Shown here: positions 1-27,701 of the stretch, one piece after another
How positions within the stretch are numbered: the stretch's first letter is position 1
Layout of the letters: every line of letters starts with the position of its first letter
Assembly: GCF_054482595.1 (NCBI RefSeq)
Contig: NZ_CM137008.1
DNA length: 64,000 nucleotides
Strand: one strand, 5' to 3'
Program-made: the position numbers and the translations under genes
The notes under the pieces: model-generated
The model's input: the letters and a program-made list of their open reading frames with translations, nothing else
Databases searched by the model: none
What the model was told of the DNA's origin: nothing

Positions 1-503
1 CGAAATCACTGAATGCTCTTTGAGTATATCTTCGCTGTCAGGTAACCAATGAACCCGTTCCACATCCCGGGAGCTTCTGGTACTGCGCCGCTTCGTCCGG
101 TGACACAAAGCTCTTACATTGCCCATGGCATCCATAATCAACTGCTCCAGAACAGGGGCATCGAAATACGCCTTTCGGGCACATCACACCACTTTATATT
201 CCGGCATATCAGGAGCATAGTTCCGGGTCAGAAGTACCGGTCATCAGATCGAGCAGGATGTCAGTCAATGCTGCCCCCGGGATTAACTATGCAGAAACAG
301 TCCTGAGACACAGACAAGATCAGAGACGACGCACGCGTGTGGTTGATTGACACCAACGTGCGGGTTCAGCGAATCAGCGATCACGGTGCGATTTCGCGCC
401 ACAGTACACAATCAATAGTAAGCGTAAACTGACCGCCGTATGTAGCCATTAAGCCTGTATTGGTAACGTAGGTGCCCACTTTTTCAACTAGTGGACACCT
501 GTT

Positions 504-710
504 ATGGAACAGAAAATATTATCCGCAGAACCCCGCAGAACATTTTCAAATGAGTTTAAACTTCAAATGGTTAAACTGGCTTCACAACCAGGAGCCTCTG
601 TTGCCCGTATTGCCAGGGAACACGATATCAATGATAATCTTCTGCTCAAATGGCTCTGGCTGATCGGCCTTCCCCCACTTTTTACGCGAGGTGATTATGA
701 AGATCAATGA
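504..710 (+). pseudogene. IS3-family transposase OrfA-like fragment (HTH N-terminus, truncated)
   Basis: 68-aa ORF with the typical IS3/IS911 OrfA N-terminal pattern (RRTFSNEFKLQMVKL...SVARIAREHDINDNLLLKWL); too short for an intact orfA and no orfB follows. Confidence 0.5.
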
Positions 711-908
711 CTAGCCGTCGAACCGTGTGCATGAACTGCTGCACTGAAACTTCTCAGCTGTAAAGTAATCCTTACGCTACGTACTTCTCGGAGCGCTTAC
801 GATTAATCAGATGCAGTCCTGACTGGAAGAAAGAAAAATGGAAAAATAAGAGGAATTAATATATTCCACGTTCCTGAAATCCTGGAGGATATTAATGTCA
901 TCAAAATA

Positions 909-1925
909 TTAGCGAACGATAATCCCTAACAAAATACCCAGTACGCCAAAGTCAGCATCACTGGAGGTGGTGTTAGCAAAACCAATATCATCCAGCACAG
1001 GCAATAAGAATACTGGCGGGAAGGTAATAGGCAAGCCTTGAGCGAAGGCACCCAAAATCGCACCACGACGTCCCCCCGTTGCATTACCGAATACCCCTGC
1101 AGTTGCACCTACGAAGAAGTGCGGCACCATACCAGGAATAATCACGATCATGTTCAGCAGATACAACGTGAACATACCGATTAAACCTGCAGCAAAGCTG
1201 CTCAGGAAACCAACCAGTATAGCGTTAGGTGCGTAAGGGAAGACGACCCGGGAATCGAGAGCTGGTCTGGCATTCGGAACCAGCTTGTCTGAAATACCTT
1301 TGAATGCCGGGACAATCTCCGCAATCACCATGCGCACACCCTGCAGAATGATGTAAACACCTGCTGCGAAGGTAATAGATTGCATGATGGAGAACATGAA
1401 CCAGTTTTTACCACCACTAAGCTCTTTCACCACATCTGCACGCGCAAACAGGCACGTCACCAGGAAAATTATGCTCATGGTAAAAGAGATAGCAACCGGC
1501 GTGTCGCGCAAGAACAGCAGACTTTTCGGCACATTCATGTCTTCAGTCGAGTGGTCTTTATTACCAAACTTGCTGCCGATGAAACCGGCCAATACATAAG
1601 ATAATGTTGAGAAGTGGCCGATGGCAACGTCATCAGAACCGGTCACTTTCTTCATGTACGGATGCGCAATAGCCGGGAAAAAGACCATTGCCACGCCAAC
1701 AACCAAAGAGCCAACGGCTATAAGCGTAATGCCGGTCATGCCTGCTGTTGCCAGAATTACCGCTACCATCATCGACATAAACAACGTGTGATGACCGGTC
1801 AGGAAGATAAATTTCCACGGTGTGAAACGGGCAATCAGAATGTTGATAACCATCAGAAACGCTGGACTATCCCTCGGAAACGTTAGCTGAGATCCGCCAT
1901 ACCGGCGCACGAGCCGGGCTGGCAT
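909..1925 (-). CDS. PTS sugar transporter EIIC, SgaT/UlaA-like; probably N-terminally truncated, ORF start likely spurious
   Basis: 338-aa polytopic membrane ORF with glycine-rich transmembrane segments typical of L-ascorbate-family EIIC; shorter than the usual 420-480 aa; it abuts a truncated epimerase fragment on the opposite strand. Confidence 0.45.
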   Translation of the reverse strand: MPARLVRRYGGSQLTFPRDSPAFLMVINILIARFTPWKFIFLTGHHTLFMSMMVAVILATAGMTGITLIAVGSLVVGVAMVFFPAIAHPYMKKVTGSDDVAIGHFSTLSYVLAGFIGSKFGNKDHSTEDMNVPKSLLFLRDTPVAISFTMSIIFLVTCLFARADVVKELSGGKNWFMFSIMQSITFAAGVYIILQGVRMVIAEIVPAFKGISDKLVPNARPALDSRVVFPYAPNAILVGFLSSFAAGLIGMFTLYLLNMIVIIPGMVPHFFVGATAGVFGNATGGRRGAILGAFAQGLPITFPPVFLLPVLDDIGFANTTSSDADFGVLGILLGIIVR

Positions 1926-1981
1926 TTAATCCGGCGACCCCAATCGACGCCTGGCAATATCTGGCGTCTGAGCTGGACGGC

Positions 1982-2221
1982 GTGATGGTGATGACCTGTG
2001 AGCCCGATGGGCACGGACAGCGGTTTATTCCCTCTATGTGCGAGAAAATCCAAAAAGTACGCACGGCTTTTCCTCAGACCGAGTGCTGGGCCGACGGTGG
2101 AATTACGCTGGCGGCAGCACAGCAACTGGCTGCAGCCGGGGGGCAGCATATGGTGATTGGGCGCGTCTTGTTCTTTTCATCTGACTATCGCGCGACCTTA
2201 GTTCAATTCGCCACCCTGTAA
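1982..2221 (+). pseudogene. sgcE: Ribulose-phosphate 3-epimerase C-terminal fragment (sgcE-like remnant)
   Basis: 79-aa ORF matching the C-terminal part of Rpe-family epimerases (FIPSMCEKIQKVR...DGGI...AAGG...VIGRVLF); lies immediately upstream of sgcR as in the K-12 sgc locus; N-terminal ~2/3 missing. Confidence 0.6.
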
Positions 2222-2237
2222 GAGGAGATTGTTTCTG

Positions 2238-3020
2238 ATGAGCCAACAGAGACCTGACCGTATCAAACAGATGCTGCACTACCTGTGGCAACATCGTCAC
2301 CTCTCCACACAGCAGGCCATGGAGCTTTTTGGCTATGCGGAGGCGACTGTCCGTCGTGATTTTCAGTATATTGCCAACCAGTACCCAGGCATGATCCGCG
2401 GTCACGGTTGTCTCGACTTCGACGACAGTACTGACGACAAAGAGTACGTTTTCGATGTGAAACGTACATTGCAATCTGTGGCGAAGAGAGAAATAGTCGC
2501 CCTTGCCCGAACGATGATCAAAGATGGCGACTGCTTTTTTCTCGACTCCGGCTCAACCTGCCTCGAACTGGCGAAATGCCTGGCCGATGCACGGGTGAAG
2601 GTCTCCTGCAACGACATTAAAATCGCCAATGAGCTGGGCTGTTTTCCCCATGTGGAAAGCTATATTATCGGTGGACTGATTCGCCCGGGGTATTTTTCGG
2701 TAGGAGAGAGTCTGGCGCTGGAGATGATCAATGCCTTTTCCGTAGAACGTGCGTTTATCTCCTGCGATGCGCTGTCGCTGGAGACGGGGATCACCAATGC
2801 CACCATGTTTGAGGTCCGGGTGAAAACACGGATTATTCAACGCTCGCGTGAAGTTATTCTCATGGCCGAACACTCAAAATTTGATGCCGTTGAGCCGCAT
2901 GCTGTAGCAACACTCTCATGTATTAAAACGATCATTAGTGACAGCGGGTTACCTGAGACTATTGCACAGCGTTATCAGCGAGCCGGATGTCAGTTGTTTT
3001 TACCTCATTCAATAAAGTGA
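2238..3020 (+). CDS. sgcR: DeoR-family transcriptional regulator SgcR
   Basis: N-terminal HTH plus DeoR C-terminal sugar-phosphate domain; sequence from MSQQRPDRIKQMLHYLWQHRHLSTQQAMELFGY matches my recollection of K-12 SgcR. Confidence 0.8.
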   Translation: MSQQRPDRIKQMLHYLWQHRHLSTQQAMELFGYAEATVRRDFQYIANQYPGMIRGHGCLDFDDSTDDKEYVFDVKRTLQSVAKREIVALARTMIKDGDCFFLDSGSTCLELAKCLADARVKVSCNDIKIANELGCFPHVESYIIGGLIRPGYFSVGESLALEMINAFSVERAFISCDALSLETGITNATMFEVRVKTRIIQRSREVILMAEHSKFDAVEPHAVATLSCIKTIISDSGLPETIAQRYQRAGCQLFLPHSIK

Positions 3021-3392
3021 TAGGTAAGTTCGTTCGAGAGGGATTTCAAGCAAAAACAATCAATGGCACCCAATAGAAAATATTGGCGATGTGCTCGAAC
3101 GAATAAAGAAGCCCTATGCGCAATCCACACGCTACGATGTTGCAACAACACTCCATCTACTTTTTATTCTCATTCACTAAATGTGGCTGTTCTGGATTCA
3201 TTATTCAAAGTGTGTACAAGATCACATTTAATCACTTCATTACGGTTCAGCATGCTGAACAAAGCATATTTTCCACTATGTAATGCCGATACCATTTATT
3301 CCATGAGCAAGGAGGAGCCATTATGGTTCGCAAAGGGGGTGATGCTGCCAACTTACTGATTTAGTGTATGATGGTGTTTTTGAGGTGCTCCA

Positions 3393-3668
3393 GTGGCTTC
3401 TGTTTCTATCAGCTGTCCCTCCTGTTCAGCTACTGACGGGGTGGTGCGTAACGGCAAAAGCACCGCCGGACATCAGCGCTATCTCTGCTCTCACTGCCGT
3501 AAAACATGGCAACTGCAGTTCACTTACACCGCTTCTCAACCCGGTACGCACCAGAAAATCATTGATATGGCCATGAATGGCGTTGGATGCCGGGCAACAG
3601 CCCGCATTATGGGCGTTGGCCTCAACACGATTTTACGTCACTTAAAAAACTCAGGCCGCAGTCGGTAA
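3393..3668 (+). CDS. insA: IS1 InsA
   Basis: 91-aa product [43 protein letters not shown]... is the canonical IS1 InsA. Confidence 0.95.
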
Positions 3669-4090
3669 CCTCGCGCATACAACCGGGCAGTGACGTCATC
3701 GTCTGCGCGGAAATGGACGAACAGTGGGGCTATGTCGGGGCTAAATCGCGCCAGCGCTGGCTGTTTTACGCGTATGACAGGCTCCGGAAGACGGTTGTTG
3801 CGCACGTATTCGGTGAACGCACTATGGCGACGCTGGGGCGTCTTATGAGGCTGCTGTCACCCTTTGACGTGGTGATATGGATGACGGATGGCTGGCCGCT
3901 GTATGAATCCCGCCTGAAGGGAAAGCTGCACGTAATCAGCAAGCGATATACGCAGCGAATTGAGCGGCATAACCTGAATCTGAGGCAGCACCTGGCACGG
4001 CTGGGACGGAAGTCGCTGTCGTTCTCAAAATCGGTGGAGCTGCATGACAAAGTCATCGGGCATTATCTGAACATAAAACACTATCAATAA
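3587..4090 (+). CDS. insB: IS1 InsB (normally expressed as InsAB' by -1 frameshift)
   Basis: 167-aa product ...[72 protein letters not shown] is canonical IS1 InsB. Confidence 0.9.
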
Positions 4091-4322
4091 GTTGGAGTCA
4101 TTACCGAATCAACCTATGGTGCGGTATGTTTAAGTATGCCGGTATTCAATATGTATAACAGAGTTAACTATGCAATCTCACTTTCTGGCGATCCGGTAAT
4201 TTATTCAGGAAATAAGATAGACAGCTATCTGGAGTTGCTCCGGAAATGCACAGGGCAAATATCATATGGGCTGGGATACAGAAACGAAAATGAACATTTA
4301 CGAAAAGGAAACTGAGGTAATG

Positions 4323-5225
4323 AAAAAATTCAGCGGCATTATTCCACCGGTATCCAGCACGTTTCATCGTGACGGAACCCTTGATAAAAAGGCAATGCGC
4401 GAAGTTGCCGACTTCCTGATTAATAAAGGGGTTGACGGGCTGTTTTATCTGGGTACCGGTGGTGAATTTAGCCAGATGAATACAGCCCAGCGCATGGCGC
4501 TCGCCGAAGAAGCTGTAACCATTGTCGACGGGCGAGTGCCGGTATTGATTGGCATCGGTTCCCCTTCCACTGACGAAGCGGTCAAACTGGCGCAGCATGC
4601 GCAAGCCTGCGGCGCTGATGGTATCGTCGCCATCAACCCCTACTACTGGAAAGTTGCGGCGCGGAATCTTGACGACTACTACCAGCAGATCGCCCGCAGC
4701 GTCACACTGCCGGTGATCCTGTACAACTTTCCGGATCTAACCGGTCAGGACTTAACCCCGGAGACCGTGAAACGTCTGGCACTGCAAAATGAAAATATCG
4801 TCGGCATCAAAGACACCATCGACAGCGTCGGCCATCTGCGCACGATGATCAACACCGTTAAGTCTGTACGTCCGTCATTTTCGGTATTCTGCGGCTTCGA
4901 CGACCATTTACTGAATACCCTGCTGCTGGGCGGCGATGGCGCGATATCCGCCAGCGCTAATTTTGCTCCGGAACTCTCTGTCGGTATCTACCGCGCCTGG
5001 CGCGAGGGCGATCTGGCAACTGCCGCCACCCTGAATAAAAAGCTCCTGCAACTGCCCGCGATTTACGGCCTTGAAACGCCGTTTGTCTCACTGATCAAAT
5101 ACAGCATGCAGTGCGTGGGGTTGCCGGTGGAGACATATTGCCTGCCGCCGATTCTTGACGTCTCAGAAGAAGCCAAAGAAAAAGTCCACGCACTGCTGGC
5201 CGCGCAGGGCATTTTATCGGACTGA
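4323..5225 (+). CDS. yjhH: 2-dehydro-3-deoxy-D-pentonate aldolase (DapA/NAL family), YjhH/YagE-like
   Basis: DapA-family TIM barrel; from MKKFSGIIPPVSSTFHRDGTLDKKAMREV it is near-identical to my recollection of E. coli YjhH; directly followed by the yjhG-like dehydratase. Confidence 0.85.
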   Translation, partial: KKFSGIIPPVSSTFHRDGTLDKKAMREVADFLINKGVDGLFYLGTGGEFSQMNTAQRMALAEEAVTIVDGRVPVLIGIGSPSTDEAVKLAQHAQACGADGIVAINPYYWKVAARNLDDYYQQIARSVTLPVILYNFPDLTGQDLTPETVKRLALQNENIVGIKDTIDSVGHLRTMINTVKSVRPSFSVFCGFDDHLLNTLLLGGDGAISASANFAPELSVGIYRAWREGDLATAATLNKKLLQLPAIYGLETPFVSLIKYSMQCVGLPVETYCLPPILDVSEEAKEKVHALLAAQGILSD

Positions 5226-5235
5226 GGAGAAGATC

Positions 5236-7203
5236 ATGTCTGTTCGCCATATTTTTGCTGACGAAAGTCGCGATATCTACACCGTCAGAACCCACGCCGA
5301 TGGCCCTGACGGAGAACTGCCGCTTACGGCGGAAATGCTCATCAACCGCCCGAGCGGGGATCTGTTCGGGATGACCATGAATGCCGGAATGGGCTGGTCC
5401 CCAGACGAACTGGATCGGGACGGTATTCTACTGCTCAGCACGCTGGGAGGGTTACGCGGGGCAGACGGTAAGCCCATCGCGCTGGCGCTGCACCAGGGTC
5501 ACTACGAGCTGGATATCCAGATGAAAGCGGCCGCGGAGGTCATCAAAGCGAACCGTGTCCTGCCCTATGCCGTGTATGTTTCCGATCCGTGCGACGGACG
5601 AACTCAGGGTACGACGGGTATGTTTGACTCGCTACCGTACCGTAATGACGCCGCCATGGTGATGCGTCGTCTAATCCGCTCTCTGCCCGATGCGAAAGCC
5701 GTCATTGGCGTGGCGAGCTGCGACAAGGGACTTCCGGCCACCATGATGGCACTTGCCGCGCAGCATGACAAAGCGACGGTGCTGGTGCCCGGTGGCGCGA
5801 CGCTACCCGCAAGGGATGGGGAGGATAACGGCAAGGTGCAGACCATCGGCGCCCGCTTCGCCAATGGCGAGTTATCGCTACAGGATGCCCGCCGTGCGGG
5901 TTGTAAAGCCTGCGCCTCCTCCGGCGGCGGCTGTCAATTTCTGGGCACCGCCGGGACATCGCAGGTCGTAGCCGAAGGATTAGGACTGGCCATCCCGCAC
6001 TCAGCACTGGCCCCTTCCGGCGAACCGGTGTGGCAGGAGATAGCCAGAGCCTCCGCGAAGGCGGCGTTGAACTTATGTAAACAAGGCATCACCACCCGGG
6101 AAATACTCACCGATAAAGCGATTGAGAATGCGATGACGGTCCATGCGGCGTTCGGTGGTTCAACAAATCTGTTGCTGCATATTCCGGCGATTGCCCATCA
6201 GGCCGGCTGCCATATTCCAACCGTTGACGACTGGATCCGCATCAACAAGCGGGTGCCCCGACTGGTAAGCGTACTCCCCAATGGTCCGGTTTATCACCCG
6301 ACAGTGAATGCCTTCATGGCGGGAGGTGTGCCGGAGGTGATGCTGCATCTTCGTAGTCTGGGATTGCTGCATGAAGACGTGATGACGGTCACCGGCAGCA
6401 CGCTGAAAGAAAACCTGGACTGGTGGGAGCATTCCGAACGGCGTCAGCGGTTCAAACAGCTTCTGCGCGAACAGGAGCAGATCGATGCCGACGAGGTGAT
6501 CATGTCGCCACAGCGGGCACGGGAGCGCGGCCTGACCTCAACGATCACTTTCCCGGTGGGCAATATTGCCCCGGAAGGGTCGGTTATCAAATCCACCGCC
6601 ATCGATCCCTCGGTGATTGATGATCGGGGCATCTATTACCATAAAGGCGTGGCGAAGGTTTATCTGTCCGAGAAAAGCGCGATTTACGATATCAAGCACG
6701 AGAAGATTAAAGCGGGCGATATTCTGGTCATCATCGGCGTTGGCCCTTCCGGCACCGGGATGGAGGAAACCTACCAGGTCACCAGCGCCCTGAAACATCT
6801 GTCCTATGGCAAGCATGTTTCACTGATCACCGATGCGCGTTTCTCGGGTGTTTCCACGGGAGCCTGTATCGGCCACACAGGGCCAGAAGCACTGGCCGGA
6901 GGGCCAATCGGTAAATTACGCACCGGAGATATTATTGAAATTAAAATTGATTGTCGCGAGCTTCAGGGCGAAGTCAATTTCCTCGGAACCCGTAACGATG
7001 AAACATTACCCTCACGGGAGGAGGCCACCGCAATATTAAACGCCCGACCCAGTCATCAGGATTTACTTCCTGATCCTGAGCTGCCCGATGACACCCGACT
7101 CTGGGCGATGCTCCAGGCGGTAAGCGGCGGGACATGGACGGGTTGTATTTATGATGTAAATAAAATCGGCGCGGCCTTGCGCGATTATATGAATAAGAAC
7201 TGA
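5236..7203 (+). CDS. yjhG: D-xylonate dehydratase (IlvD/EDD family), YjhG/YagF-like
   Basis: IlvD/EDD-family protein starting MSVRHIFADESRDIYTVRTHADGPDGELPL, with CDGRTQG and SCDKG motifs; near-identical to remembered YjhG. Confidence 0.85.
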   Translation: MSVRHIFADESRDIYTVRTHADGPDGELPLTAEMLINRPSGDLFGMTMNAGMGWSPDELDRDGILLLSTLGGLRGADGKPIALALHQGHYELDIQMKAAAEVIKANRVLPYAVYVSDPCDGRTQGTTGMFDSLPYRNDAAMVMRRLIRSLPDAKAVIGVASCDKGLPATMMALAAQHDKATVLVPGGATLPARDGEDNGKVQTIGARFANGELSLQDARRAGCKACASSGGGCQFLGTAGTSQVVAEGLGLAIPHSALAPSGEPVWQEIARASAKAALNLCKQGITTREILTDKAIENAMTVHAAFGGSTNLLLHIPAIAHQAGCHIPTVDDWIRINKRVPRLVSVLPNGPVYHPTVNAFMAGGVPEVMLHLRSLGLLHEDVMTVTGSTLKENLDWWEHSERRQRFKQLLREQEQIDADEVIMSPQRARERGLTSTITFPVGNIAPEGSVIKSTAIDPSVIDDRGIYYHKGVAKVYLSEKSAIYDIKHEKIKAGDILVIIGVGPSGTGMEETYQVTSALKHLSYGKHVSLITDARFSGVSTGACIGHTGPEALAGGPIGKLRTGDIIEIKIDCRELQGEVNFLGTRNDETLPSREEATAILNARPSHQDLLPDPELPDDTRLWAMLQAVSGGTWTGCIYDVNKIGAALRDYMNKN

Positions 7204-7309
7204 AAGCAAAAATAAAAACATCCAGACACCTGAATTATCCGGTTACGCATTATTCATCCTGTGCGCAGCCGGATAATGACGGGTCGTTACCCTATGATGA
7301 GAGGACGTT

Positions 7310-8659
7310 ATGCCACTAATTATCGTTGTGGCAGGGATTGCTTTACTCCTGCTTTTAACCATAAAAATTAAGCTTAATACGTTTGTTTCGTTAATTATTG
7401 TCTCGATTGCTGTCGCCATCGCCAGTGGTATGGATTTGAGTAAAGTCGTCACCTCAGTCGAATCCGGACTTGGCGGTACGCTGGGCCATATTGGTTTGAT
7501 ATTTGGGTTCGGTGTTATGCTCGGTCGCTTGCTGGCCGATGCGGGGGGGGCGCAGCGAATAGCGCTGACCATGCTGAATTATTTCGGGAAAAATAAACTT
7601 GACTGGGCAGTGGTCTGTTCGGCGTTTATTGTCGGTATCGCACTTTTTTTCGAAGTCGGTTTAATTCTTCTGGTACCTATTTTATTCGCTATTGCCCGTG
7701 AAGCAAAAATATCACCGATGTTTATGTGTGTGCCGATGCTTTCCGGTTTGCTGGTCGCACACGGTTTTTTGCCGCCGCACCCCGGCCCGACAGTAATCGC
7801 CAGAGAATATGGTGCTGATGTAGGATTGGTACTGATATACGGTATCATTGTCGGCATTCCAACCTTTATTCTTTGCGGCCCGGTATTGAATAAATTCTGC
7901 CAGCGCATTATTCCGGAAGCCTTTAAAAAAGAGGGGAATATAGCCTCTCTCGGCGCGACCCGCCGGTTCAGCGAAAGCGAAATGCCTGGCTTTGGGATCA
8001 GTTTTCTCACGGCAATGCTGCCGGTGATCCTGATGGCGGTTGTCACCATCATCCAGATGACTCATGCCAAAAGTGCCGCGGATTCAGGCTTATTCTACAA
8101 CGTGCTACTGTTCTTAGGTAATTCGACGATCGCCATGCTGATTTCACTGCTGTTCGCGATCTATACCATGGGCCTGGGGCGCGGGAAAACAATCCCTGAC
8201 CTGATGGATTCTTGCGGAAAAGCTATCGCGGGTATTGCCGGTCTGCTGCTGATTATCGGTGGTGGTGGTGCATTCAAGCAAGTTCTCATCGACTCTGGCG
8301 TTGGTCAGTATATTTCCACCCTGGTTTCGGGTATGGATATTAACCCGATCCTGATGGCCTGGGGCGTGGCCGCATTCCTGCGTATTTGTCTGGGTTCAGC
8401 CACCGTCGCGGCGATCTCTACCGCCGGTCTGGTCATCCCATTGTTGGCAGTACATCCCAATACCAACCTGGCCTTGATTACGCTGGCTACCGGTGCCGGA
8501 TCCTGTATTTGTTCTCACGTTAACGATGCCAGTTTCTGGATGATTAAAGACTTTTTTGGCCTGACCACCAAAGAAACGCTGTTATCCTGGACGCTGATGT
8601 CCACACTCTTATCCATCAGTGGGCTGATTTTTATTCTGCTCGCCAGCTTAGTTTTATAA
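7310..8659 (+). CDS. yjhF: GntP-family permease (sugar-acid:H+ symporter), YjhF-like
   Basis: 449-aa polytopic membrane protein of the GntP type; position downstream of yjhG matches the K-12 yjhF arrangement. Confidence 0.8.
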
Positions 8660-9005
8660 TCGGGTTCTTGCCAGTGAGCCAACCTGTTGTTCACTGTCCC
8701 CCATAATTTAGTGAGTGACGGCAACCGTCTGCACGGTGACGAATCGCTGGCGATCAAAAAGGGGCGATATTGAACCGTCGATTATGCTTGTTGAGTGTAC
8801 TCTCAGTAATACTGTAAAGCCGGAGCATGTCTCCGGCTTTACAGTATGGGGGAACAGCGGGAGATCGCTCAAATGGTATGCTGGTTTATTTCATGTAAAA
8901 GAATAAAATATCTGTATAAAATCATGCCACTGGCAATCTGCATCAACTCTCCGGGTAAACAGGGTTAAGATGAGCATTTCCCCGGTTTAATACAGGTATA
9001 CAAAA

Positions 9006-9992
9006 GTGGATAGAGATCAAACAAACAGCAGCCTGTTCAATGATGATCCCGTACTTCATGCAACATGGCTGTACTATCAGGAAGGCAAAAGCCAGACTGA
9101 AGTTGCAGCTATCATGGGGGTGTCCCGCGTCACGGTTGTCAAATACCTGCAAACAGCCCGGGAAAATGGACTGGTTCATATCAACCTGGATGTGAATGTC
9201 TTTGGCTCTATCGACGCTGCTTTGCAAATTCGCGATAAATTCAATCTCCTGAGAGTGATCATCGTGCCGGATGGCGAACATGCCGGAAAACGTGATGATA
9301 CAAAGCTGATGCGGACTCGCCTTTCACGTGCCGGTGGCATGTATCTGAATCAGGTGATTGAGAATGGTGATGTGCTGGGGGTTGCCTGGGGAAGAACAAT
9401 CCATCAGATGAGCAAAACCATGACGCCGAAGTCATGTAAAAATGTCACCGTTATACAGATGCTCGGTTCCATGCCATCTCAGCCAGACCTGACGATCATT
9501 GAATCCTCATCGCAAATCGCCTACAAGCTTTCAGGCCGTGTCGCTTCGCTGCACGTGCCCGCCGTGGTATCAAGCGCCAGACTGGCCATGGAGTTACAGG
9601 CAGAGCCTATTATTCGATCGAATTTTGACGTTCTGACTCGCTGTACGAAAGCCTTTTTTGTCGTGGGTAACACGCTTGATGAAAATCCCCTGATTCGGGT
9701 GGGCGTGCTGAATAAGAAGGAAATGCAGACGTATCGAGATTTAGGCGCAGTAGGTGTCATTTGTGGCCGCTTCTATGACAAGGAAGGGATGCCCGTCGTG
9801 GCTGATGTTGACCAGCGTATTCTGGGAATCAGTCTGGCTCAGTTAAGGCAGATTGAACGGAAGATCTTTCTTGCTGGTGGCGAAAGAGGCTATGACGCAA
9901 CGTTGGGTGCCTTGCTGGGAGGATATGTCACTGACCTGATTGTTGATGAAGGAACGGCAGAGTTTTTGCTGGCGTGTGAATTACCACACTAA
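9006..9992 (+). CDS. yjhU: SorC/DeoR-like sugar-binding transcriptional regulator, YjhU-like
   Basis: N-terminal HTH (SQTEVAAIMGVSRVTVVKYLQTARENGLV) followed by a SorC-type sugar-phosphate-binding domain; GTG start as given by the ORF track; position after yjhF matches K-12 yjhU. Confidence 0.7.
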   Translation: MDRDQTNSSLFNDDPVLHATWLYYQEGKSQTEVAAIMGVSRVTVVKYLQTARENGLVHINLDVNVFGSIDAALQIRDKFNLLRVIIVPDGEHAGKRDDTKLMRTRLSRAGGMYLNQVIENGDVLGVAWGRTIHQMSKTMTPKSCKNVTVIQMLGSMPSQPDLTIIESSSQIAYKLSGRVASLHVPAVVSSARLAMELQAEPIIRSNFDVLTRCTKAFFVVGNTLDENPLIRVGVLNKKEMQTYRDLGAVGVICGRFYDKEGMPVVADVDQRILGISLAQLRQIERKIFLAGGERGYDATLGALLGGYVTDLIVDEGTAEFLLACELPH

Positions 9993-10004
9993 AAGAATGA
10001 ACAA

Positions 10005-10028
10005 CTGCCCCATGTGGATATGGGGCAG
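10005..10028. terminator. Bidirectional hairpin between convergent yjhU-like and permease genes
   Basis: Perfect 9-bp inverted repeat CTGCCCCAT-gtggat-ATGGGGCAG followed by a T-rich tract, between two convergent stop codons. Confidence 0.6.
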
Positions 10029-10032
10029 GATT

Positions 10033-11037
10033 TTATTGATTAGCGGCGATAATAAGAACAATACCCACAATGTATGAAATAAACATAGTCAGCAGCAGTT
10101 TATTGGTTCCGGCTGGCGCACTGGCAAATTCTCTCCAGATGAAGACTCCCCAGATCACGGCAATCATTGTGGCACCCTGTCCCAGACCGTAGGAAATGGC
10201 ATAACCCGCCTGACCAGACGCAATCAAACTGAATGCCAGACCGACACACCAAATCATACCGCCCAGCCAGCCGCAAACATGATCCCGTAAACTCCCGGAA
10301 AAATACATTTTCCTGTAGACCGGTTCTCCTGAAATAGGCTTTTTCATGACCAGCGTGTTAAGGACAAAGTTCGACAAAAACAGCCCCACTGCAAACAGAA
10401 CAAGTGCTGAGTACGGCGTCATCAGACCGCTGGCAGGCTGGCTGAAATTGTCAGACATGGAGTCCGCCAGGAAGCGGAAAAACCATCCCATGATGATACC
10501 CGCAAGAATGGCAGTGATGAGGCCTTTGTTACGGCGAGATTTATCCGCCTCCTGCGTGACACGGCCATAGGCTATCGCGGTAAAAATAATGGCGATCACA
10601 ACGCAGGCGACACCGAGGAACAGAATGAGCGGATCGCCCTGCGGATTGCCGATATAGGTGGTGATCACACCCAGAGCCAGTGCCAGCCCCACCCCCACAG
10701 GAAAAGCTACCGCCATACCGGCAAGATTAATAGAAGCCACCAGAAGAATATTGGAAATATTGAAGATAATCCCTGCCAGTATTGCCGACATCAGACTACT
10801 GCTGCTCGCCTGCTGAATATCAGGTATAAAGCTGCGACCGGCTTCGCCCATAGAACCCAGAGTGAAGGCAAATAACAAAGAACACAGCAATAATCCAATT
10901 GAATAATCCCAATAGAATAGAGGGAACTCCCATTTTTTATTACTGACAAGTTTAGTTGTATTCGCCCATGAACCCCAGCAAATCATGGTAATAAAACACA
11001 TTATTATGGCGACAGCATACGATTCCACGATAAACAT
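10033..11037 (-). CDS. Sugar permease (DMT superfamily, RhaT/GlcU-like); candidate 5-deoxyribose/methylthioribose importer of the DHAP shunt cluster
   Basis: 334-aa membrane protein with ~10 transmembrane segments in two repeated halves; last gene of the mtnK-mtnA-ald2 operon on the minus strand. Confidence 0.65.
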   Translation of the reverse strand: MFIVESYAVAIIMCFITMICWGSWANTTKLVSNKKWEFPLFYWDYSIGLLLCSLLFAFTLGSMGEAGRSFIPDIQQASSSSLMSAILAGIIFNISNILLVASINLAGMAVAFPVGVGLALALGVITTYIGNPQGDPLILFLGVACVVIAIIFTAIAYGRVTQEADKSRRNKGLITAILAGIIMGWFFRFLADSMSDNFSQPASGLMTPYSALVLFAVGLFLSNFVLNTLVMKKPISGEPVYRKMYFSGSLRDHVCGWLGGMIWCVGLAFSLIASGQAGYAISYGLGQGATMIAVIWGVFIWREFASAPAGTNKLLLTMFISYIVGIVLIIAANQ

Positions 11038-11140
11038 AAATAACTCCTTGTGGTAGTTACAATCAATCGTTGTGGACAGAGGGCATAACAGCCATTCCTC
11101 GAATGGCTGTTATATGTTATTAATTAAAATAAAGCTGTAA

Positions 11141-11782
11141 TTACGCTTTCAAACCATACGTTTTGAATTTTTCAAGAACGATGGTCATTTCGGCTTCAGA
11201 CAGAACGGGAACATCGTGATGTAATCCGCCACATTTGATGTATAAATCAGCCAGCGTCTCAGTTTCACCCGCCAGCCACAACGTCTTTTCCAGCGTGACG
11301 TCCATGGCCAGCATACCGTGGTGCTGCATCAGTAAGGACTTACTTTCTCTGATTCCTTGAGATACACTGTCGGCCAGTTCAGGGCTGCCAAAGGTATAAT
11401 AGGGAATACAGGGAATATGATCCGTCCCCGATACCGCCACCATATAATGAATAGCCGGAATTGAATGATTATGTATTGCCACCGCCGTGGAATTCACCGC
11501 ATGCGTATGTATGACAGCATTCAATTCTGGTCTGGCTTTATAACACGCCAGATGAAATAGCCATTCACTTGATGGTATTTTACCCGCTTCAGGTATTCCC
11601 TTATCGTCTACAAAGACAATCATGTCCGGCGTCATCTTTGAATAAGCGATCCCACTCGGTGTAATCAACATGCCACCGGTATATCTGGCACTCACATTAC
11701 CTGATGTTCCTTGATTCAGACCTGACGCATTCATTTCCCGACAAATGGAAATGATATTTTCTGCTAACTTAATCCTTTCCAT
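11141..11782 (-). CDS. ald2: Class II aldolase (fuculose-1-P aldolase family); 5-deoxyribulose-1-P / 5-methylthioribulose-1-P aldolase of the DHAP shunt
   Basis: 213-aa class II aldolase/adducin-fold protein with metal-binding His motifs (HTHAVNSTAVA...QHHG); directly downstream of mtnA and mtnK homologues. Confidence 0.8.
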   Translation of the reverse strand: MERIKLAENIISICREMNASGLNQGTSGNVSARYTGGMLITPSGIAYSKMTPDMIVFVDDKGIPEAGKIPSSEWLFHLACYKARPELNAVIHTHAVNSTAVAIHNHSIPAIHYMVAVSGTDHIPCIPYYTFGSPELADSVSQGIRESKSLLMQHHGMLAMDVTLEKTLWLAGETETLADLYIKCGGLHHDVPVLSEAEMTIVLEKFKTYGLKA

Positions 11783-11812
11783 TACTGCTCCTTAACAGAA
11801 GTGATCGTCGTT

Positions 11813-12928
11813 TTAATGCAGCTCGTCCTGGAGTGCTTTACTCTTCAGGTCAGCAAACATATCCGCCAGAGCTGACTTACTGGCAGCACAGACTCCCCGT
11901 TCAGTAATGAGGCCGGTAATGTATCGGGCAGGCGTGACGTCGAAAGCGTAGTTCCCACAACGGGTTCCTTCAGGGGCGGTATTGACCCAGCTCAATTCTC
12001 CCTGAGTATTTATCCCATAGACATGGGACTGCTCTTTTCCGTCACGTTGCTCAATCGGAATGGTTTTTCCGTCCTCGATAGTCCAGTCAATAGTGGGAGA
12101 AGGTAACGCGACGTAGAAGGGAACATGGTTATCATGGGCCGCCAGCGCCTTAAGATAGGTACCAATTTTATTACAGACATCCCCTCTGGCCGTGGTTCGA
12201 TCGGTCCCCACTATACAGAGATCAACGTCACCGTGTTGCATCAGGTGGCCACCCGCATTGTCGGCAATCAGGGTGTGAGGAATACCGTGTGAACCCAGTT
12301 CAAATGCCGTGAGTCCACCCTGATTACGTGGCCGCGTTTCATCCACCCAGACGTGAACAGGGATTCCGTTTTCATGCGCTTTATAGATGGGAGAAAGCGC
12401 GGTTCCCCAGTCTACAGTCGCCAGCCAGCCTGCGTTACAATGTGTCAGGATATTGACCACACTCCCGGCCGATTTTTTCTGGGCTATTTCGCGGATGACT
12501 TCTGCACCATGTAATCCAATTTGTTCACACAACGCGACATCTTCCTCGGCAATTTCTGCCGCCAGCGCCCAGGCCACATCCTTGCGCTCTGATACACAGA
12601 GATCCTTCAGTGTGGCTATCATCCTGTCGAGAGCCCATTTGAGGTTAATTGCAGTTGGTCGGGTTTTGATAAGAAGGTCATAGTAACGCTGCAGACCTAC
12701 GTCACTGGCATTGTGGTTCATTCCCAGTGCGATACCATATGCCGCAACGACACCAATAAGCGGGGCGCCACGAACCCACATCTCCTGAATAGCCGCAGCG
12801 GCCATTTCCGCAGAGGTAAGCGCCACCACTTCAAACTTAAAAGGCAGCTTAGTCTGATCGATGATCTCTACCGCTTTTCCATCCCCGGAAACCCAGACCG
12901 TTCGGTAGTGTTTACCTTTAATATTCAT
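11813..12928 (-). CDS. mtnA: 5-methylthioribose-1-phosphate (5-deoxyribose-1-P) isomerase
   Basis: 371-aa eIF-2B alpha/beta/delta-family protein ([39 protein letters not shown]) typical of MtnA. Confidence 0.85.
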
Positions 12929-12937
12929 AATGACCTC

Positions 12938-14197
12938 TTACTTAACCTTCGCAGACTGGATGACGGAGTCCATATTTTTAAACTGGCGGGCATTGACAAT
13001 AAGATCGCGCGCCATGGTCAATGCACGTCGTTCACATTCTGCGCGAAGCTCTGTATTTTCAATCTGTTTCAGCTCGGCAACGCCAGCAAAACCAATGATC
13101 CGGCGATTCATTTCCATGCCGGCATTCACCAGGGAATCTTCAAGCAGCGTGGCAAAAAACTGATCCTGTGCGTCCTCAAGAGCGGCCCTGTTCTGTTGAT
13201 ACATTTCTGTCGGCCACGCGTCACCCTGTGTTTTGTTGTCCCAGAGCTGGCGGAACTCCCGGGTGAAAACTGACCAGGTGTGGACAATCTGCTGAAGTAG
13301 CCATTCCTGATAGTCAGCGCGACGTTGCTCATTTGCATCCCACCCAGGGCGTGAGAAGAACGCCAGCAGGAGGTTGCCAATATAGTTGCCGATATCAAAC
13401 GCCATTGGTCCCATGAAACCGAACTCCGGATCAATCACTTTGGTATCCGTGTCGGTCACCATGATTGAGCCTGAATGAAGGTCACCATGTAACAATGCCT
13501 GCGCTTCTGTCATAAATTTGTACTTATAACGCATGGCAACCTGGAGCATCTCTACATCAGCCCAGGCCTTATGGACGGCATCGTCCAGCTCAGGAGAAGT
13601 CCAGTTATTCCGTTCCGCGTTGTAATAGGGCTCTGTGAAGATCAGATCTTCCGTAATTTTGCACAGCTCATGATTTAACGCGAACTCAGCAGTAAGCGCT
13701 TTTTTCTGTTCTGCTGACATGCCAATGTCAGACGTATTAAAGAGAGTCTGTGCTAAAAATCTGCCGATATCTTCAGCTAGCTTAGGGAATTTTTTACCGT
13801 TAATCAGTCCCTTACGCAGAATTACGTGAGGCGTCAAATACTCCATGGCAAACAGTGCCATTTCCGGGTCATAAAAATAGACCTGGGGAATCAGTGTGTG
13901 ACCCGCGTACTTGGCTTCCTGACATAAGACGTTGTACTCAAAGCCCGCACGGCTCAGAGATAAAGGCCATCCTTCGCCCCCTGCACGAAGCCAGGGCAGA
14001 GCTTGTTTTACAATGATGGTTTTATGTGTCCCCTTAACGATAAACACCATGTTCAGGTTTCCGTCCCCCACTTCTGAAACTTTCCACTCTTCTGGTAACC
14101 CTCCCGGTTCGCATGAAGGGGTCAGTCTGGACGAGAGATAACCAGGCAGCGTGTCACATGTCAGCGGCTTGTAACCTGATGGAATTGAATCCGTCAT
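12938..14197 (-). CDS. mtnK: 5-methylthioribose / 5-deoxyribose kinase
   Basis: 419-aa protein-kinase-like fold with MtnK hallmarks (EVGDGNLNMVF, HGDLHSGSIMV, KVIDPEFGFMGP). Confidence 0.85.
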   Translation of the reverse strand: MTDSIPSGYKPLTCDTLPGYLSSRLTPSCEPGGLPEEWKVSEVGDGNLNMVFIVKGTHKTIIVKQALPWLRAGGEGWPLSLSRAGFEYNVLCQEAKYAGHTLIPQVYFYDPEMALFAMEYLTPHVILRKGLINGKKFPKLAEDIGRFLAQTLFNTSDIGMSAEQKKALTAEFALNHELCKITEDLIFTEPYYNAERNNWTSPELDDAVHKAWADVEMLQVAMRYKYKFMTEAQALLHGDLHSGSIMVTDTDTKVIDPEFGFMGPMAFDIGNYIGNLLLAFFSRPGWDANEQRRADYQEWLLQQIVHTWSVFTREFRQLWDNKTQGDAWPTEMYQQNRAALEDAQDQFFATLLEDSLVNAGMEMNRRIIGFAGVAELKQIENTELRAECERRALTMARDLIVNARQFKNMDSVIQSAKVK

Positions 14198-15395: not shown

Positions 15396-16508
15396 ATGAA
15401 AAAAATTACAGTGGCACTTTCTGTGGTTGCGGCATCTGTTCTGATGGCAATGTCTGCACAAGCGGCAGAAATCTATAACAAAGACGGTAACAAACTGGAT
15501 CTGTACGGCAAAGTTAATGCAGAGCATTACTTCTCTTCTTCAGCTAGTGATGACGGGGATAAAACTTATGCTCGTATGGGTTTCAAAGGTGAAACTCAGA
15601 TTAATGACCAGTTAACCGGTTTTGGTCAGTGGGAGTACGAATTTAAAGGTAACCGTACTGAAACTGAAGGTTCTGATAAAGATAAAACTCGTCTTGCGTT
15701 TGCAGGGCTTCGCTTTGGCGATTATGGTTCGCTCGACTATGGTCGCAACTACGGTGTAGCTTATGATGTTGGCGCTTGGACTGACGTGCTGCCGGAGTTT
15801 GGTGGAGATACCTGGACTCAGACTGATGTATTTATGACCCAGCGTGCTACTGGCGTAGCGACCTATCGTAACAATGATTTCTTCGGCTTGGTTGATGGTC
15901 TGAACTTTGCTTTGCAGTATCAAGGTAAAAATGATAGTGCTGCAAAAGTGAATAACTGGAAAGGCCGTGACGAAGTTGAATCTAATGGTGATGGCTTTGG
16001 TCTGTCAGCTACTTACGATTATGAGGGATTTGGCGTTGCTGCAACCTATGCAAAATCTGACCGTACTGATGGGCAGGTATCCTATGCTAAAGACAGCCCT
16101 CTGAATGCCTCTGGTAAAACTGCTGAAGTATGGGCTACGGGCCTGAAATATGATGCAAACAACATTTACCTGGCTGCAACTTATTCTGAAACTCAGAATA
16201 TGACAGTCTTCGGTGATGACCATATCGCAAACAAAGCGAAAAACTTTGAAGCTGTTGCTCAATACCAGTTTGATTTCGGCTTGCGTCCGTCCATCGCTTA
16301 CCTACACTCTCGCGGTGAAAATATTGGTGCGTTCGGTAACCAGGATCTAGTTGAATACATCGACGTAGGTGCGACTTATTACTTCAACAAAAATATGTCC
16401 GCTTTCGTTGACTACAAGATCAACCTGATTGATGAAAGTGAATTTACCAAAGCATCTGAGGTTGCAACCGACAACATCGTTGCTGTTGGTATGACCTACC
16501 AATTCTAA
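15396..16508 (+). CDS. Outer-membrane general porin, OmpC/OmpF/PhoE family paralogue
   Basis: Signal peptide followed by [17 protein letters not shown], conserved porin motifs ([25 protein letters not shown]) and C-terminal ...VAVGMTYQF; a Rho-independent terminator follows. Confidence 0.9.
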
Positions 16509-16742: not shown

Positions 16743-17975
16743 ACGTAATGTGGACACGGCCCTAAGCGAGATTATGGTTTTCAAATTGTTCCGGGCTGAG
16801 ACCGCCACAGGCACTGTGACGACGCCAGCGATTGTAATCACACTCGATATAATTAAACACCGTTGCCCGCATTATTTCCCGGCTGCTAAAGCGTTCCCCG
16901 TGGATACATTCCACCTTCAGCGAATGAAAGAAGCTTTCCACACAGGCATTGTCATAACAGTAGCCTTTCGCACTCATACTGCCACGCAGGTTGTGTCGCT
17001 TCAGCAGCGCCTGATAATCCCCTGAACAGTATTGACCACCACGGTCCGTATGAACAATGACGCTTTCCGGGCGTCTTCTCCGCCACAACGCCATTTGCAG
17101 TGCATCACAGGCCAGTTGTGCTGTCATTCGCGGTGACATCGACCAGCCAATGACGGCGCGTGACCACAGGTCGATGACTACTGCGAGATACAACCAGCCC
17201 TCATCGGTACGCAAGTACGTGATGTCACCCGCCCACTTCTGGTTCGGGCCACTGGCGCTGAAGTCCTGCTCCAGCAGATTCTCCAATACGGGCAGACCAT
17301 GTGCACGGTAGCTGACCGGGCTGAACTTCCGGCTGGCTTTCGCCCGCAGCCCCTGACGACGCAGGCTGGCGGCAATGGTTTTAATATTGAACTCCGGCAG
17401 TTCGTCAGCAAGGCGGGGATCACCGTATCGCTGCTTTGCCTCAAAGAATGCCTTATGGACAGCGGCATCGCAGGTGAGCCGAAACTGTTGGCGCAGGCTC
17501 ATCTGGTGACGACGCCTGAGCCAGACATACCAGCCGCTGCGGGCAACCCGAAGTACACGACACATCGCTTTGATGCTGAACTCTGCCCGATGATTTTCGA
17601 TGAAGACATACTTCATTTCAGGCGCTTCGCGAAGTATGTCGCGGCCTTTTGGAGGATGGCCAGTTCCTCAGCCTGCTCCGCCAGTTGTCGTTTAAGGCGG
17701 ACATTTTCAGCGGCCAGTTCGCTTTCGCGCTCTGACGAACTCATTTGTTGCTGCTGTTTACTGCGCCAGGCATAAAGCTGAGATTCATACAGGCTGAGTT
17801 CACGGGCTGCGGCGGCCACACCGATGCGTTCAGCGAGTTTCAGGGCTTCGTTACGAAATTCAGGCGTATGTTGTTTACGGGGTTTCTTGCTGATTGATAC
17901 TGGTTTTGTCATGAGTCACCTCTGGTTGAGAGTTTACTCACTTAGTCCTGTGTCCACTATTGGTGGGTAAGATCA
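16743..17975 (-). mobile_element. IS3-family insertion sequence (IS3-like), ~1.23 kb, orfA/orfB with overlapping frames
   Basis: Terminal inverted repeats TGATCCTACCCACGTAATGTGGACAC (left) and GTGGACACAGGACTAAGTGAGTAAACT...TGATC (right, reverse strand); OrfA (17613-17912) is IS3 InsE-like and OrfB (16762-17616) has the DDE integrase core; the two ORFs overlap as expected for a -1 frameshift. Confidence 0.9.
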
Positions 17976-26162: not shown

Positions 26163-27428
26163 TTACTGTTTTAATGGATTATTAATCTTTGCATATTCAA
26201 ATGGACTGATAAATTTTTCTCTGTTTGCATCCAGAAAATCGGCCCACCATTGTAGCATCAAGCGGCGTTCTTCCAGATGCTCTGCTTTATGAATGTAAGC
26301 AGCACGTACACCGTTACGTTCCTGATGGCTCATCTGACGTTCCACAGCATCGCGGGACCACAAACCTGATTCAATCAATGCACTGCACGCCATCGCCCGG
26401 AATCCATGGCCACAGACTTCCTGGGTTGTGTCATACCCCATCACCCTCAGGGCTTTATTTACAGTATTTTCACTGATTGGTTTACGCGGGTCATGTGCAC
26501 CCGTAAATATCAGACCATTTTCACCTGCCCATGTCTGAAGTTCTGTCAGTATGGCTACAGCCTGTTTGCTGAGTGGCACAAGATGTGGTGTTCGCATCTT
26601 GGAGCCCCGGTGTGAGAATTTTACGCCTGGCAGAGGTTCGCGTTCGGCTGGAATAGTCCACTTGGCATTGTCAATATCAATTTCAGACCAGCGGGCATAT
26701 CTGAGTTCACTGGAACGAATAAAAACCAGTAAATTCAGCATAACTGCCAGTCGGGTGACAGGCTGGCCTTTATAACCGTCAATACGCGACAGAAGTTCAG
26801 GCAAGCGTGAAAGATCCAGAGCAGGGCGATGCTGGCGTTTTACCGTGGTCAATGCACCAGCCATATCCAGAGCCGGGTTATATCTGATGATGCCTGACTG
26901 TACGGCATAACGCATTACAGCAGATATTCTTTGCTGCAGACGACTGGCGATTTCATAAATTTGTTTTGCTTCTGCAGCACGAACAGGGATAAGCAGATCC
27001 GGGGTATTGAGTGTTGTGATATCCCGGTTGCCGATAAAGGGGAAAACGTGTGTCTCGAGGCTTTTGAGTACTTTATCGCTGTGTGATTGTGCCCATTGTT
27101 TATTACTGGCATGCCAGCGTCGTGCAATATGTTCAAAAGAGAGCTGTAAATCAGGGACAACTTTTTTAACTCTTTTCTGTTCGCAAGGGTCAATCCCTTC
27201 TGAAATCAGTTTTCGGGCCTCATCCCGTTTTGTACGAGCTTCGGAGAGAGAAACTTCTGGATACACACCAAGTGCCAGAGTCTTCTCCTTACCCAGAATA
27301 CGATAACGGAGACGCCAGTAACGGGAACCATTAGGATGAACCAGCAGGAACATGCCGGCCCCGTCAGTGAGTTTATAAGCCTTGTCAGTGGGCTTTGCAG
27401 CCCGGATTTTTGCGTCAGTCAGTGCCAT
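26163..27428 (-). CDS. int: Tyrosine site-specific integrase, P4-type (island integrase)
   Basis: 421-aa protein with the P4-integrase N-terminus MALTDAKIRAAKPTDKAYKLTDGAGMFLLVHPNGSRYWRLRY and the C-terminal catalytic domain; lies ~200 bp from the 3' end of tRNA-Phe. Confidence 0.95.
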   Translation of the reverse strand: MALTDAKIRAAKPTDKAYKLTDGAGMFLLVHPNGSRYWRLRYRILGKEKTLALGVYPEVSLSEARTKRDEARKLISEGIDPCEQKRVKKVVPDLQLSFEHIARRWHASNKQWAQSHSDKVLKSLETHVFPFIGNRDITTLNTPDLLIPVRAAEAKQIYEIASRLQQRISAVMRYAVQSGIIRYNPALDMAGALTTVKRQHRPALDLSRLPELLSRIDGYKGQPVTRLAVMLNLLVFIRSSELRYARWSEIDIDNAKWTIPAEREPLPGVKFSHRGSKMRTPHLVPLSKQAVAILTELQTWAGENGLIFTGAHDPRKPISENTVNKALRVMGYDTTQEVCGHGFRAMACSALIESGLWSRDAVERQMSHQERNGVRAAYIHKAEHLEERRLMLQWWADFLDANREKFISPFEYAKINNPLKQ

Positions 27429-27625: not shown

Positions 27626-27701
27626 TGGTGCCCGGACTCGGAATCGAACCAAGGACACGGGGATTTTCAATCCCCTGCTCTACCGACTGAGCTATCCGGG
27701 C
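27626..27701 (-). tRNA. pheV: tRNA-Phe (GAA)
   Basis: Reverse complement reads GCCCGGATAGCTCAGTCGGTAGAGCAGGGGATTGAAAATCCCCGTGTCCTTGGTTCGATTCCGAGTCCGGGCACCA, which is E. coli tRNA-Phe with CCA end. Confidence 0.97.

Follow-up and report, generated by a model that had tools for sequence, protein, structure and literature searches.

The window analyzed here is a 64,000-nt stretch of contig NZ_CM137008.1 (assembly GCF_054482595.1), and the module under study, at positions 2238-9992, runs from sgcR through yjhI, yjhH, yjhG and yjhF to yjhU. In this module, a 564-bp internal segment of yjhI, the gene of an IclR-type regulator, is absent, and a complete copy of the insertion sequence (IS) IS1 stands in its place. 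The gene is inactivated, having lost the DNA-binding domain and the greater part of the effector domain, and the aldolase and dehydratase genes that follow it, yjhH and yjhG, are intact. We consider it highly probable that the locus is best explained as a whole by an IS1 adjacent deletion that destroyed the activator YjhI and left a polar element ahead of yjhH, as part of the decay of an accessory island. In short, what is seen is insertion-sequence erosion of an accessory island and not regulation of a new kind.

The IS1 element and the remnants of yjhI

IS1 elements are about 768 bp long, carry imperfect terminal inverted repeats of about 23 bp and, when simply inserted, are flanked by a target duplication of about 9 bp. 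The element at 3338-4105 (+ strand) is complete and agrees with this definition in its length (768 bp) and its ends: the left inverted repeat, at 3338-3360, begins GGTGATGCTGCC, the right one closes with GGAGTCATTACC at 4105, and the terminal sequences are GGTGATGCTGCCAACTTACTGAT and GGTAATGACTCCAACTTATTGAT. It contains insA (3393-3668, 91 aa) and the insB frame (3587-4090, 167 aa), with the A6C -1 frameshift site of IS1, TTAAAAAAC, at 3642-3650; the transposase genes are co-oriented with yjhH, and the Pfam domains PF03811 (Zn_ribbon_InsA), PF12759 (HTH_Tnp_IS1) and PF03400 (DDE_Tnp_IS1) are all found far above the cut-off. Over its full length the element is 100% identical to annotated IS1A-family copies of active type in several E. 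coli genomes, and it is the only IS1 within the 64-kb window.

A target-site duplication was sought at the flanks of the element and none was found: the adjoining sequences CGCAAAGGG and GAATCAACC are unrelated, and the 9-12 bp on either side (GTTCGCAAAGGG and GAATCAACCTAT) are mismatched. The missing duplication means that this copy is not a simple insertion, and the identity of the element as IS1 is unaffected by it. The initial annotation of this DNA had described an intact IS1 lacking a target-site duplication at the place where yjhI belongs, and both the element and its unmatched flanks are borne out.

The extent of the loss was defined by a base-by-base comparison with L001, a sequence in which yjhI is whole. 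Window 1-3337 corresponds to L001 1001-4337 and window 4106-12000 to L001 4902-12796; outside the IS1 region, the 11,232 bp compared differ at one position, 10317. The intervening 564 bp of L001 (4338-4901), which are nucleotides 16-579 of yjhI, are absent and the 768-bp IS1 takes their place; the gap is bounded exactly by the IS1 termini, and the flanks are identical right up to the ends of the element. The alignment of the sgcR-yjhI-yjhH interval that the initial annotation had proposed thus delimits the deleted segment to the nucleotide. The deletion amounts to 71% of yjhI, and about 29% is left, mostly from the 3' end (codons 1-5 and 194-262). On the upstream side, the remnant at 3323-3337 (+) consists of codons 1-5, ATGGTTCGCAAAGGG, the same as L001 4323-4337, and the yjhI start codon now opens a 13-codon open reading frame (ORF), MVRKGGDAANLLI, whose stop at 3362-3364 lies inside the left end of IS1. 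On the downstream side, the remnant at 4106-4315 (+) holds nucleotides 580-789 (69 codons and the stop), the same as L001 4902-5111; it matches the Pfam IclR_C profile at positions 121-174 only, and the ribosome-binding region of yjhH has been kept. The suggestion that IS1 replaced the regulator gene is therefore right in that the regulator is lost, but the gene is not wholly gone: 15 nt have been left on the 5' side of the element and 210 nt on the 3' side.

Close relatives carry the intact gene. SM107, 4FM, Santai and seven other complete genomes show about 100% identity to window 1-12000 except for IS1, and in all ten the annotation places an intact yjhI of 789 bp between sgcR and yjhH. Among 243 index blocks, 23 were read, and in 23 of 23 contigs encoding an identical YjhH a 262-aa IclR gene lies upstream. 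With intact yjhI between flanks that are 100% identical, and with 564 bp lost exactly at the ends of the element, the earlier proposal of an IS1-mediated deletion holds.

The allele is rare. The genes yjhH and yjhG are themselves accessory: of 5,426 complete E. coli genomes, 1,625 carry them. yjhI goes with them, and of the 1,623 genomes with a copy of it, 1,621 have it at full length. Both IS1/yjhI junctions were sought in the 5,426 genomes without any true match, and as exact 41-42-mers in metagenome contigs with zero matches. An apparent junction match in the genome AHB24 was rejected, as it reflects a separate event in which yjhI is intact. The deletion is a mutation private to this strain, and probably a recent one, because the enzyme genes have not diverged from their counterparts in the relatives (100% identity).

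Origin of the deletion

An intact element, unmatched flanks and a deletion bounded by the termini of the element are together the textbook product of intramolecular replicative transposition of IS1. In the sequence of events that we favor, yjhI, which heads the yjhI-yjhH-yjhG operon, would first have received an IS1 copy by transposition, not long ago in the ancestry of the strain. One end of the element would then have reacted with a target elsewhere in yjhI, at a distance of 564 bp, in the intramolecular replicative reaction known as adjacent deletion. Nucleotides 16-579 and one copy of the 9-bp duplication would thereby have been lost, and a single intact IS1 left between unmatched flanks. 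The structural steps are shown by the sequence comparison, whereas the order of the two steps is inferred. The element left behind after intramolecular transposition has no direct repeats, which is typical of IS1 and Tn9 (PMC9330008), and absent duplications usually result from adjacent deletion or from recombination between insertion sequences (PMC11708052).

The second of these sources leads to an alternative in which two IS1 copies in the same orientation, one after nucleotide 15 and one after nucleotide 579 of yjhI, recombined homologously and so deleted 564 bp along with one copy. The end product would be the same, a single IS1 with unmatched flanks; each flank, with G/C at both ends, could plausibly have served as a 9-bp target, and recombination between insertion sequences is a recognized source of missing duplications (PMC11708052). 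However, for this route IS1 would have to strike twice, independently, within 564 bp of a gene that is almost always full length in the genomes counted above, and neither insertion by itself was found in the 5,426 complete genomes or the metagenome contigs. We regard it as unlikely.

An assembly artefact, namely a repeat-induced misjoin at an IS1 copy, is very improbable. IS1 is indeed multicopy in E. coli (a median of 11 places per genome), and the allele was seen nowhere else in the collections searched. A random misjoin, however, would be expected to join unrelated loci, whereas here the flanks come from one gene, 564 bp apart, in the right order and orientation, within a collinear 64-kb stretch. 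The weakest possibility, which the initial annotation had named as the alternative, is a simple IS1 insertion with normal duplications into intergenic DNA of a lineage that never had yjhI. No supporting evidence was found for it and it can practically be dismissed: an original absence of yjhI is ruled out by the two ends of the gene that are still in place, whose sequence is that of the intact yjhI in the closest relatives, and there is no duplication.

Expected consequences for the xylonate genes

The direction of any change in expression depends on what YjhI does. In K-12, YjhI is an auto-activated activator of yjhIHG that responds to 2-keto-3-deoxy-xylonate, in an "activated-activator" architecture; it is not a repressor, and there is no cross-talk from XynR (PMC13279387). 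As YjhI is an activator, its loss is expected to abolish induction and not to derepress the genes. The initial annotation had held that loss of the regulator could change expression; the literature gives this change a direction, namely lost induction (PMC13279387), and no release of the genes is to be expected.

The region from which the K-12 xylonate-responsive yjhI promoter was taken, the sgcR-yjhI region upstream of yjhI (PMC13279387), is still present. The sgcR-yjhI spacer at 3021-3322 (+) is fully kept, with about 97% identity to K-12, and contains, at 3245-3260, a perfect 16-bp palindrome, GTTCAGCATGCTGAAC, that K-12 shares and that precedes the start codon of yjhI by 63 bp. The palindrome was found by eye and then checked, its arms being below the minimum of the inverted-repeat search, which reported none in the spacer. 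As an operator candidate, it could serve YjhI or SgcR, and it would now be orphaned. A consensus promoter scan, with a threshold of at least 9 of 12 hexamer matches, returned no promoter-like site in the spacer.

Between 2900 and 5400 there are no intrinsic terminators on the + strand, and all terminator-like sites there lie on the - strand, so that Rho would be needed for any polarity of IS1. Polar effects are classical for IS1 insertions. With the element in this orientation, the insB frame would seldom be translated, and several hundred untranslated bases would then precede yjhH, the usual basis of Rho-dependent IS1 polarity. A polar IS1 would now sit between the yjhI promoter region and yjhH, with the activator destroyed. 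Under these circumstances, yjhH and yjhG are most likely uninducible, with expression that is at most low, and we consider the silencing or non-inducibility of the pair probable.

It has also to be considered whether IS1 could have rewired the operon, its right end supplying a fusion promoter or transcription reading through from it, so that yjhH-yjhG expression would be constitutive and independent of YjhI. The element is oriented toward yjhH, whose ribosome-binding region is intact, and a hexamer pair straddles the right junction (TTGGAG at 4092-4097, a 17-bp spacer and TATGGT at 4115-4120). In addition, IS1 is known to make fusion promoters (PMC9330008, which lists Prentki 1986 as an example). 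However, TTGGAG-17-TATGGT and TTACCG-18-TATGTT, the best pairs read from the end of IS1 and its flank, each match the consensus at only 7 of 12 positions, which is below the scan threshold, and the scan found no + strand promoter-like site between 3373 and 5400. The insA promoter-like site, CTGCCA-16-TATGAT at 3345-3372, is on the + strand, but the IS1 promoter is weak and repressed by InsA, and the classical polarity of IS1 insertions likewise argues against read-through. Such rewiring is doubtful, and constitutive activation of yjhH-yjhG would, on the promoter motifs present, be unlikely. A somewhat fainter chance still is given to a variant in which IS1 and the deletion would have turned a xylonate-inducible operon into a YjhI-independent one, with low constitutive levels of YjhH and YjhG selected in the niche of the strain. 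Of the earlier idea that an outward promoter of IS1 could alter expression, there remain weak hexamers at the junction, but no pair that reaches the scan threshold.

Returning to the account that we favor, adjacent deletion followed by loss of induction, several points weigh against it. The parental simple IS1 insertion, with a duplication at either junction, was found neither in the 5,426 genomes nor in the metagenome contigs, so that the two-step history stays a proposal; the absence of such a parent from the databases is compatible with a transient one. Both IS1 polarity and YjhI dependence come from work on K-12, and the yjhH and yjhG alleles here differ, with 91% and 86.5% nucleotide identity. 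The genome outside the window could hold a second yjhI or a yagEF-xynR module. Finally, weak hexamers (7-8 of 12) at the right end of IS1 and inside the yjhI remnant may permit some constitutive transcription.

For annotation, the locus is best described as intact yjhHGFU behind a yjhI pseudogene that has an IS1-associated deletion of 564 bp, and the strain is predicted to lack YjhI-dependent induction of the xylonate module. For users of the yjhI promoter/YjhI biosensor pair, it represents a natural activator-null allele in which the upstream promoter region is kept. The event is of a textbook type with all of its components already known, and this allele is unrecorded in the collections searched; its importance beyond the annotation of this strain is small.

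Genomic setting and comparison with known systems

Except for yjhI, the module is undamaged. The genes sgcR, yjhH, yjhG, yjhF and yjhU are uninterrupted, all on the + strand, in the K-12 order and with exactly the K-12 lengths. sgcR (2238-3020), named as such in relatives whose DNA is 100% identical, encodes a DeoR-family regulator of 260 aa (Pfam HTH_DeoR and DeoRC; 98.1% amino acid identity to K-12 SgcR). yjhH (4320-5225) encodes a 301-aa protein of the DHDPS family, a 2-keto-3-deoxy-D-xylonate aldolase according to the K-12 literature, and yjhG (5236-7203) a 655-aa D-xylonate dehydratase of the IlvD/Edd family (Pfam ILVD_EDD_N/C). These two genes are adjacent, co-oriented, full length and orthologous to their K-12 namesakes; in relatives with identical DNA, yjhG is annotated "xylonate dehydratase YjhG", and the YjhH protein of relatives is identical. 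After a gap of 106 bp follows yjhF (7310-8659), the gene of a 449-aa GntP-family permease (Pfam GntP_permease) and presumed xylonate transporter, and after a further 346 bp yjhU (9006-9992), which starts with GTG and encodes a 328-aa SorC-type regulator (Pfam Sugar-bind); a hairpin at 10005-10028 comes after it. Amino acid identity to K-12 is 95.0% for YjhH, 95.3% for YjhG, 99.6% for YjhF and 99.4% for YjhU. The ORFs, Pfam assignments and K-12 comparison agree with the initial annotation that the aldolase, dehydratase, permease and SorC-type regulator genes are intact and in K-12 order. In two NCBI assemblies with an identical YjhH, L007 and L009 (5991-6906), yjhF is called in two pieces of 94 and 372 aa, and in L009 sgcR is split as well (119 and 141 aa); these splits may be real frameshifts or homopolymer errors of long reads.

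At the nucleotide level the identity to K-12 is mosaic, with yjhH at 91.2% and yjhG at 86.5%, against 96.6% for sgcR, about 97% for the spacer, 98.9% for yjhF and 99.0% for yjhU. Only 12 of the 5,426 complete genomes carry the yjhHG allele of the window at 99% identity or more, and about 1,597 carry the K-12-type allele, which is about 88% identical to it. This pattern points to an exchange within the module, either an old recombination tract or the replacement of an allele.

The island that contains the module extends from window position 1 to about 27,600. An integrase ORF (26163-27428, -) and a tRNA-Phe gene (27626-27701, -) are followed by yqgA, speC and nupG. Because the tRNA-Phe gene adjoins yqgA-speC-nupG, the module lies in a pheV-site island and not at the KpLE2 (leuX) site of K-12. 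The initial annotation, which had assigned the genes to the KpLE2 order, is thus correct for gene order, but the genomic site differs. In SM107, the same island sequence is found far from these core genes, elsewhere in the chromosome.

Upstream of sgcR, remnants of the sgc operon occupy 909-2221. sgcE is cut at its 5' end, with 1854-2221 aligning to nucleotides 266-633 of K-12 sgcE, and adjoins an inverted, truncated pseudogene of an ascorbate-type IIC component of the phosphotransferase system (about 909-1859, -); IS66 and other transposase fragments lie further upstream. This sgc rearrangement is common to the relatives, and it is therefore older than the IS1 event. Downstream of yjhU, annotations in relatives identify the genes of a GRP-family sugar transporter (10033-11037, -) and a class II, fuculose-phosphate-type aldolase (11141-11782, -), mtnA (11813-12928, -) and mtnK (12938-14197, -). 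Judged by these annotations, the 10033-14197 cluster resembles a salvage module for methylthioribose or 5-deoxy-pentoses. Further on, the ORF at 15396-16508 (+) corresponds by position to an extra porin gene annotated ompC in 4FM, and the ORF at 16762-17616 (-) to the IS3-family ISEc16 element that comes after that porin gene.

The closest known system is the yjhIHG D-xylonate (Dahms-type) operon of K-12, within KpLE2 sgcR-yjhI-yjhH-yjhG-yjhF-yjhU (b4300-b4295), with which the window shares gene order, orientation and protein families; in blastn the window is collinear with MG1655 from inside sgcE (its 3' part) to 98 bp past yjhU. The K-12 operon has yjhI as its first gene, whereas in the window nucleotides 16-579 of it are exchanged for IS1. 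The two also differ downstream of yjhU, where K-12 has IS1F and the fec genes in place of the transporter, aldolase, mtnA and mtnK genes. The homology ends at window 10090, at the exact edge of K-12 IS1F (NC_000913.3 4518472-4519239), so that in K-12, too, the module ends at a breakpoint associated with IS1.

Adjacent (replicative intramolecular) deletions promoted by IS1 were reportedly first described at gal and on Tn9/IS1 plasmids (Reif and Saedler 1975; Turlan and Chandler 1995, the latter cited in PMC9330008). As in these classical cases, the element is kept intact, the deletion begins exactly at its end and the direct repeats are lost; the difference is that the deletion here is short (564 bp) and confined to one gene, which is nothing unusual. 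Two other genomes provide parallels at the same locus. In AHB24 (L003 6056-7688) the arrangement is fimD'-IS1-yjhI, and in 2017.15.02CC (L012 3248-6506) IS1 is followed by nucleotides 518-789 of yjhI only, with yjhG also cut by IS3. Both resemble the window in that IS1 lies at the upstream border of the yjh module and neighboring DNA is deleted, but they differ from it in their junctions and in the orientation and isoform of IS1, as well as in the extent of the deletion, and are independent events. With at least two independent IS1 events at yjhI elsewhere, the window adds one more private case of accessory-island erosion driven by insertion sequences.

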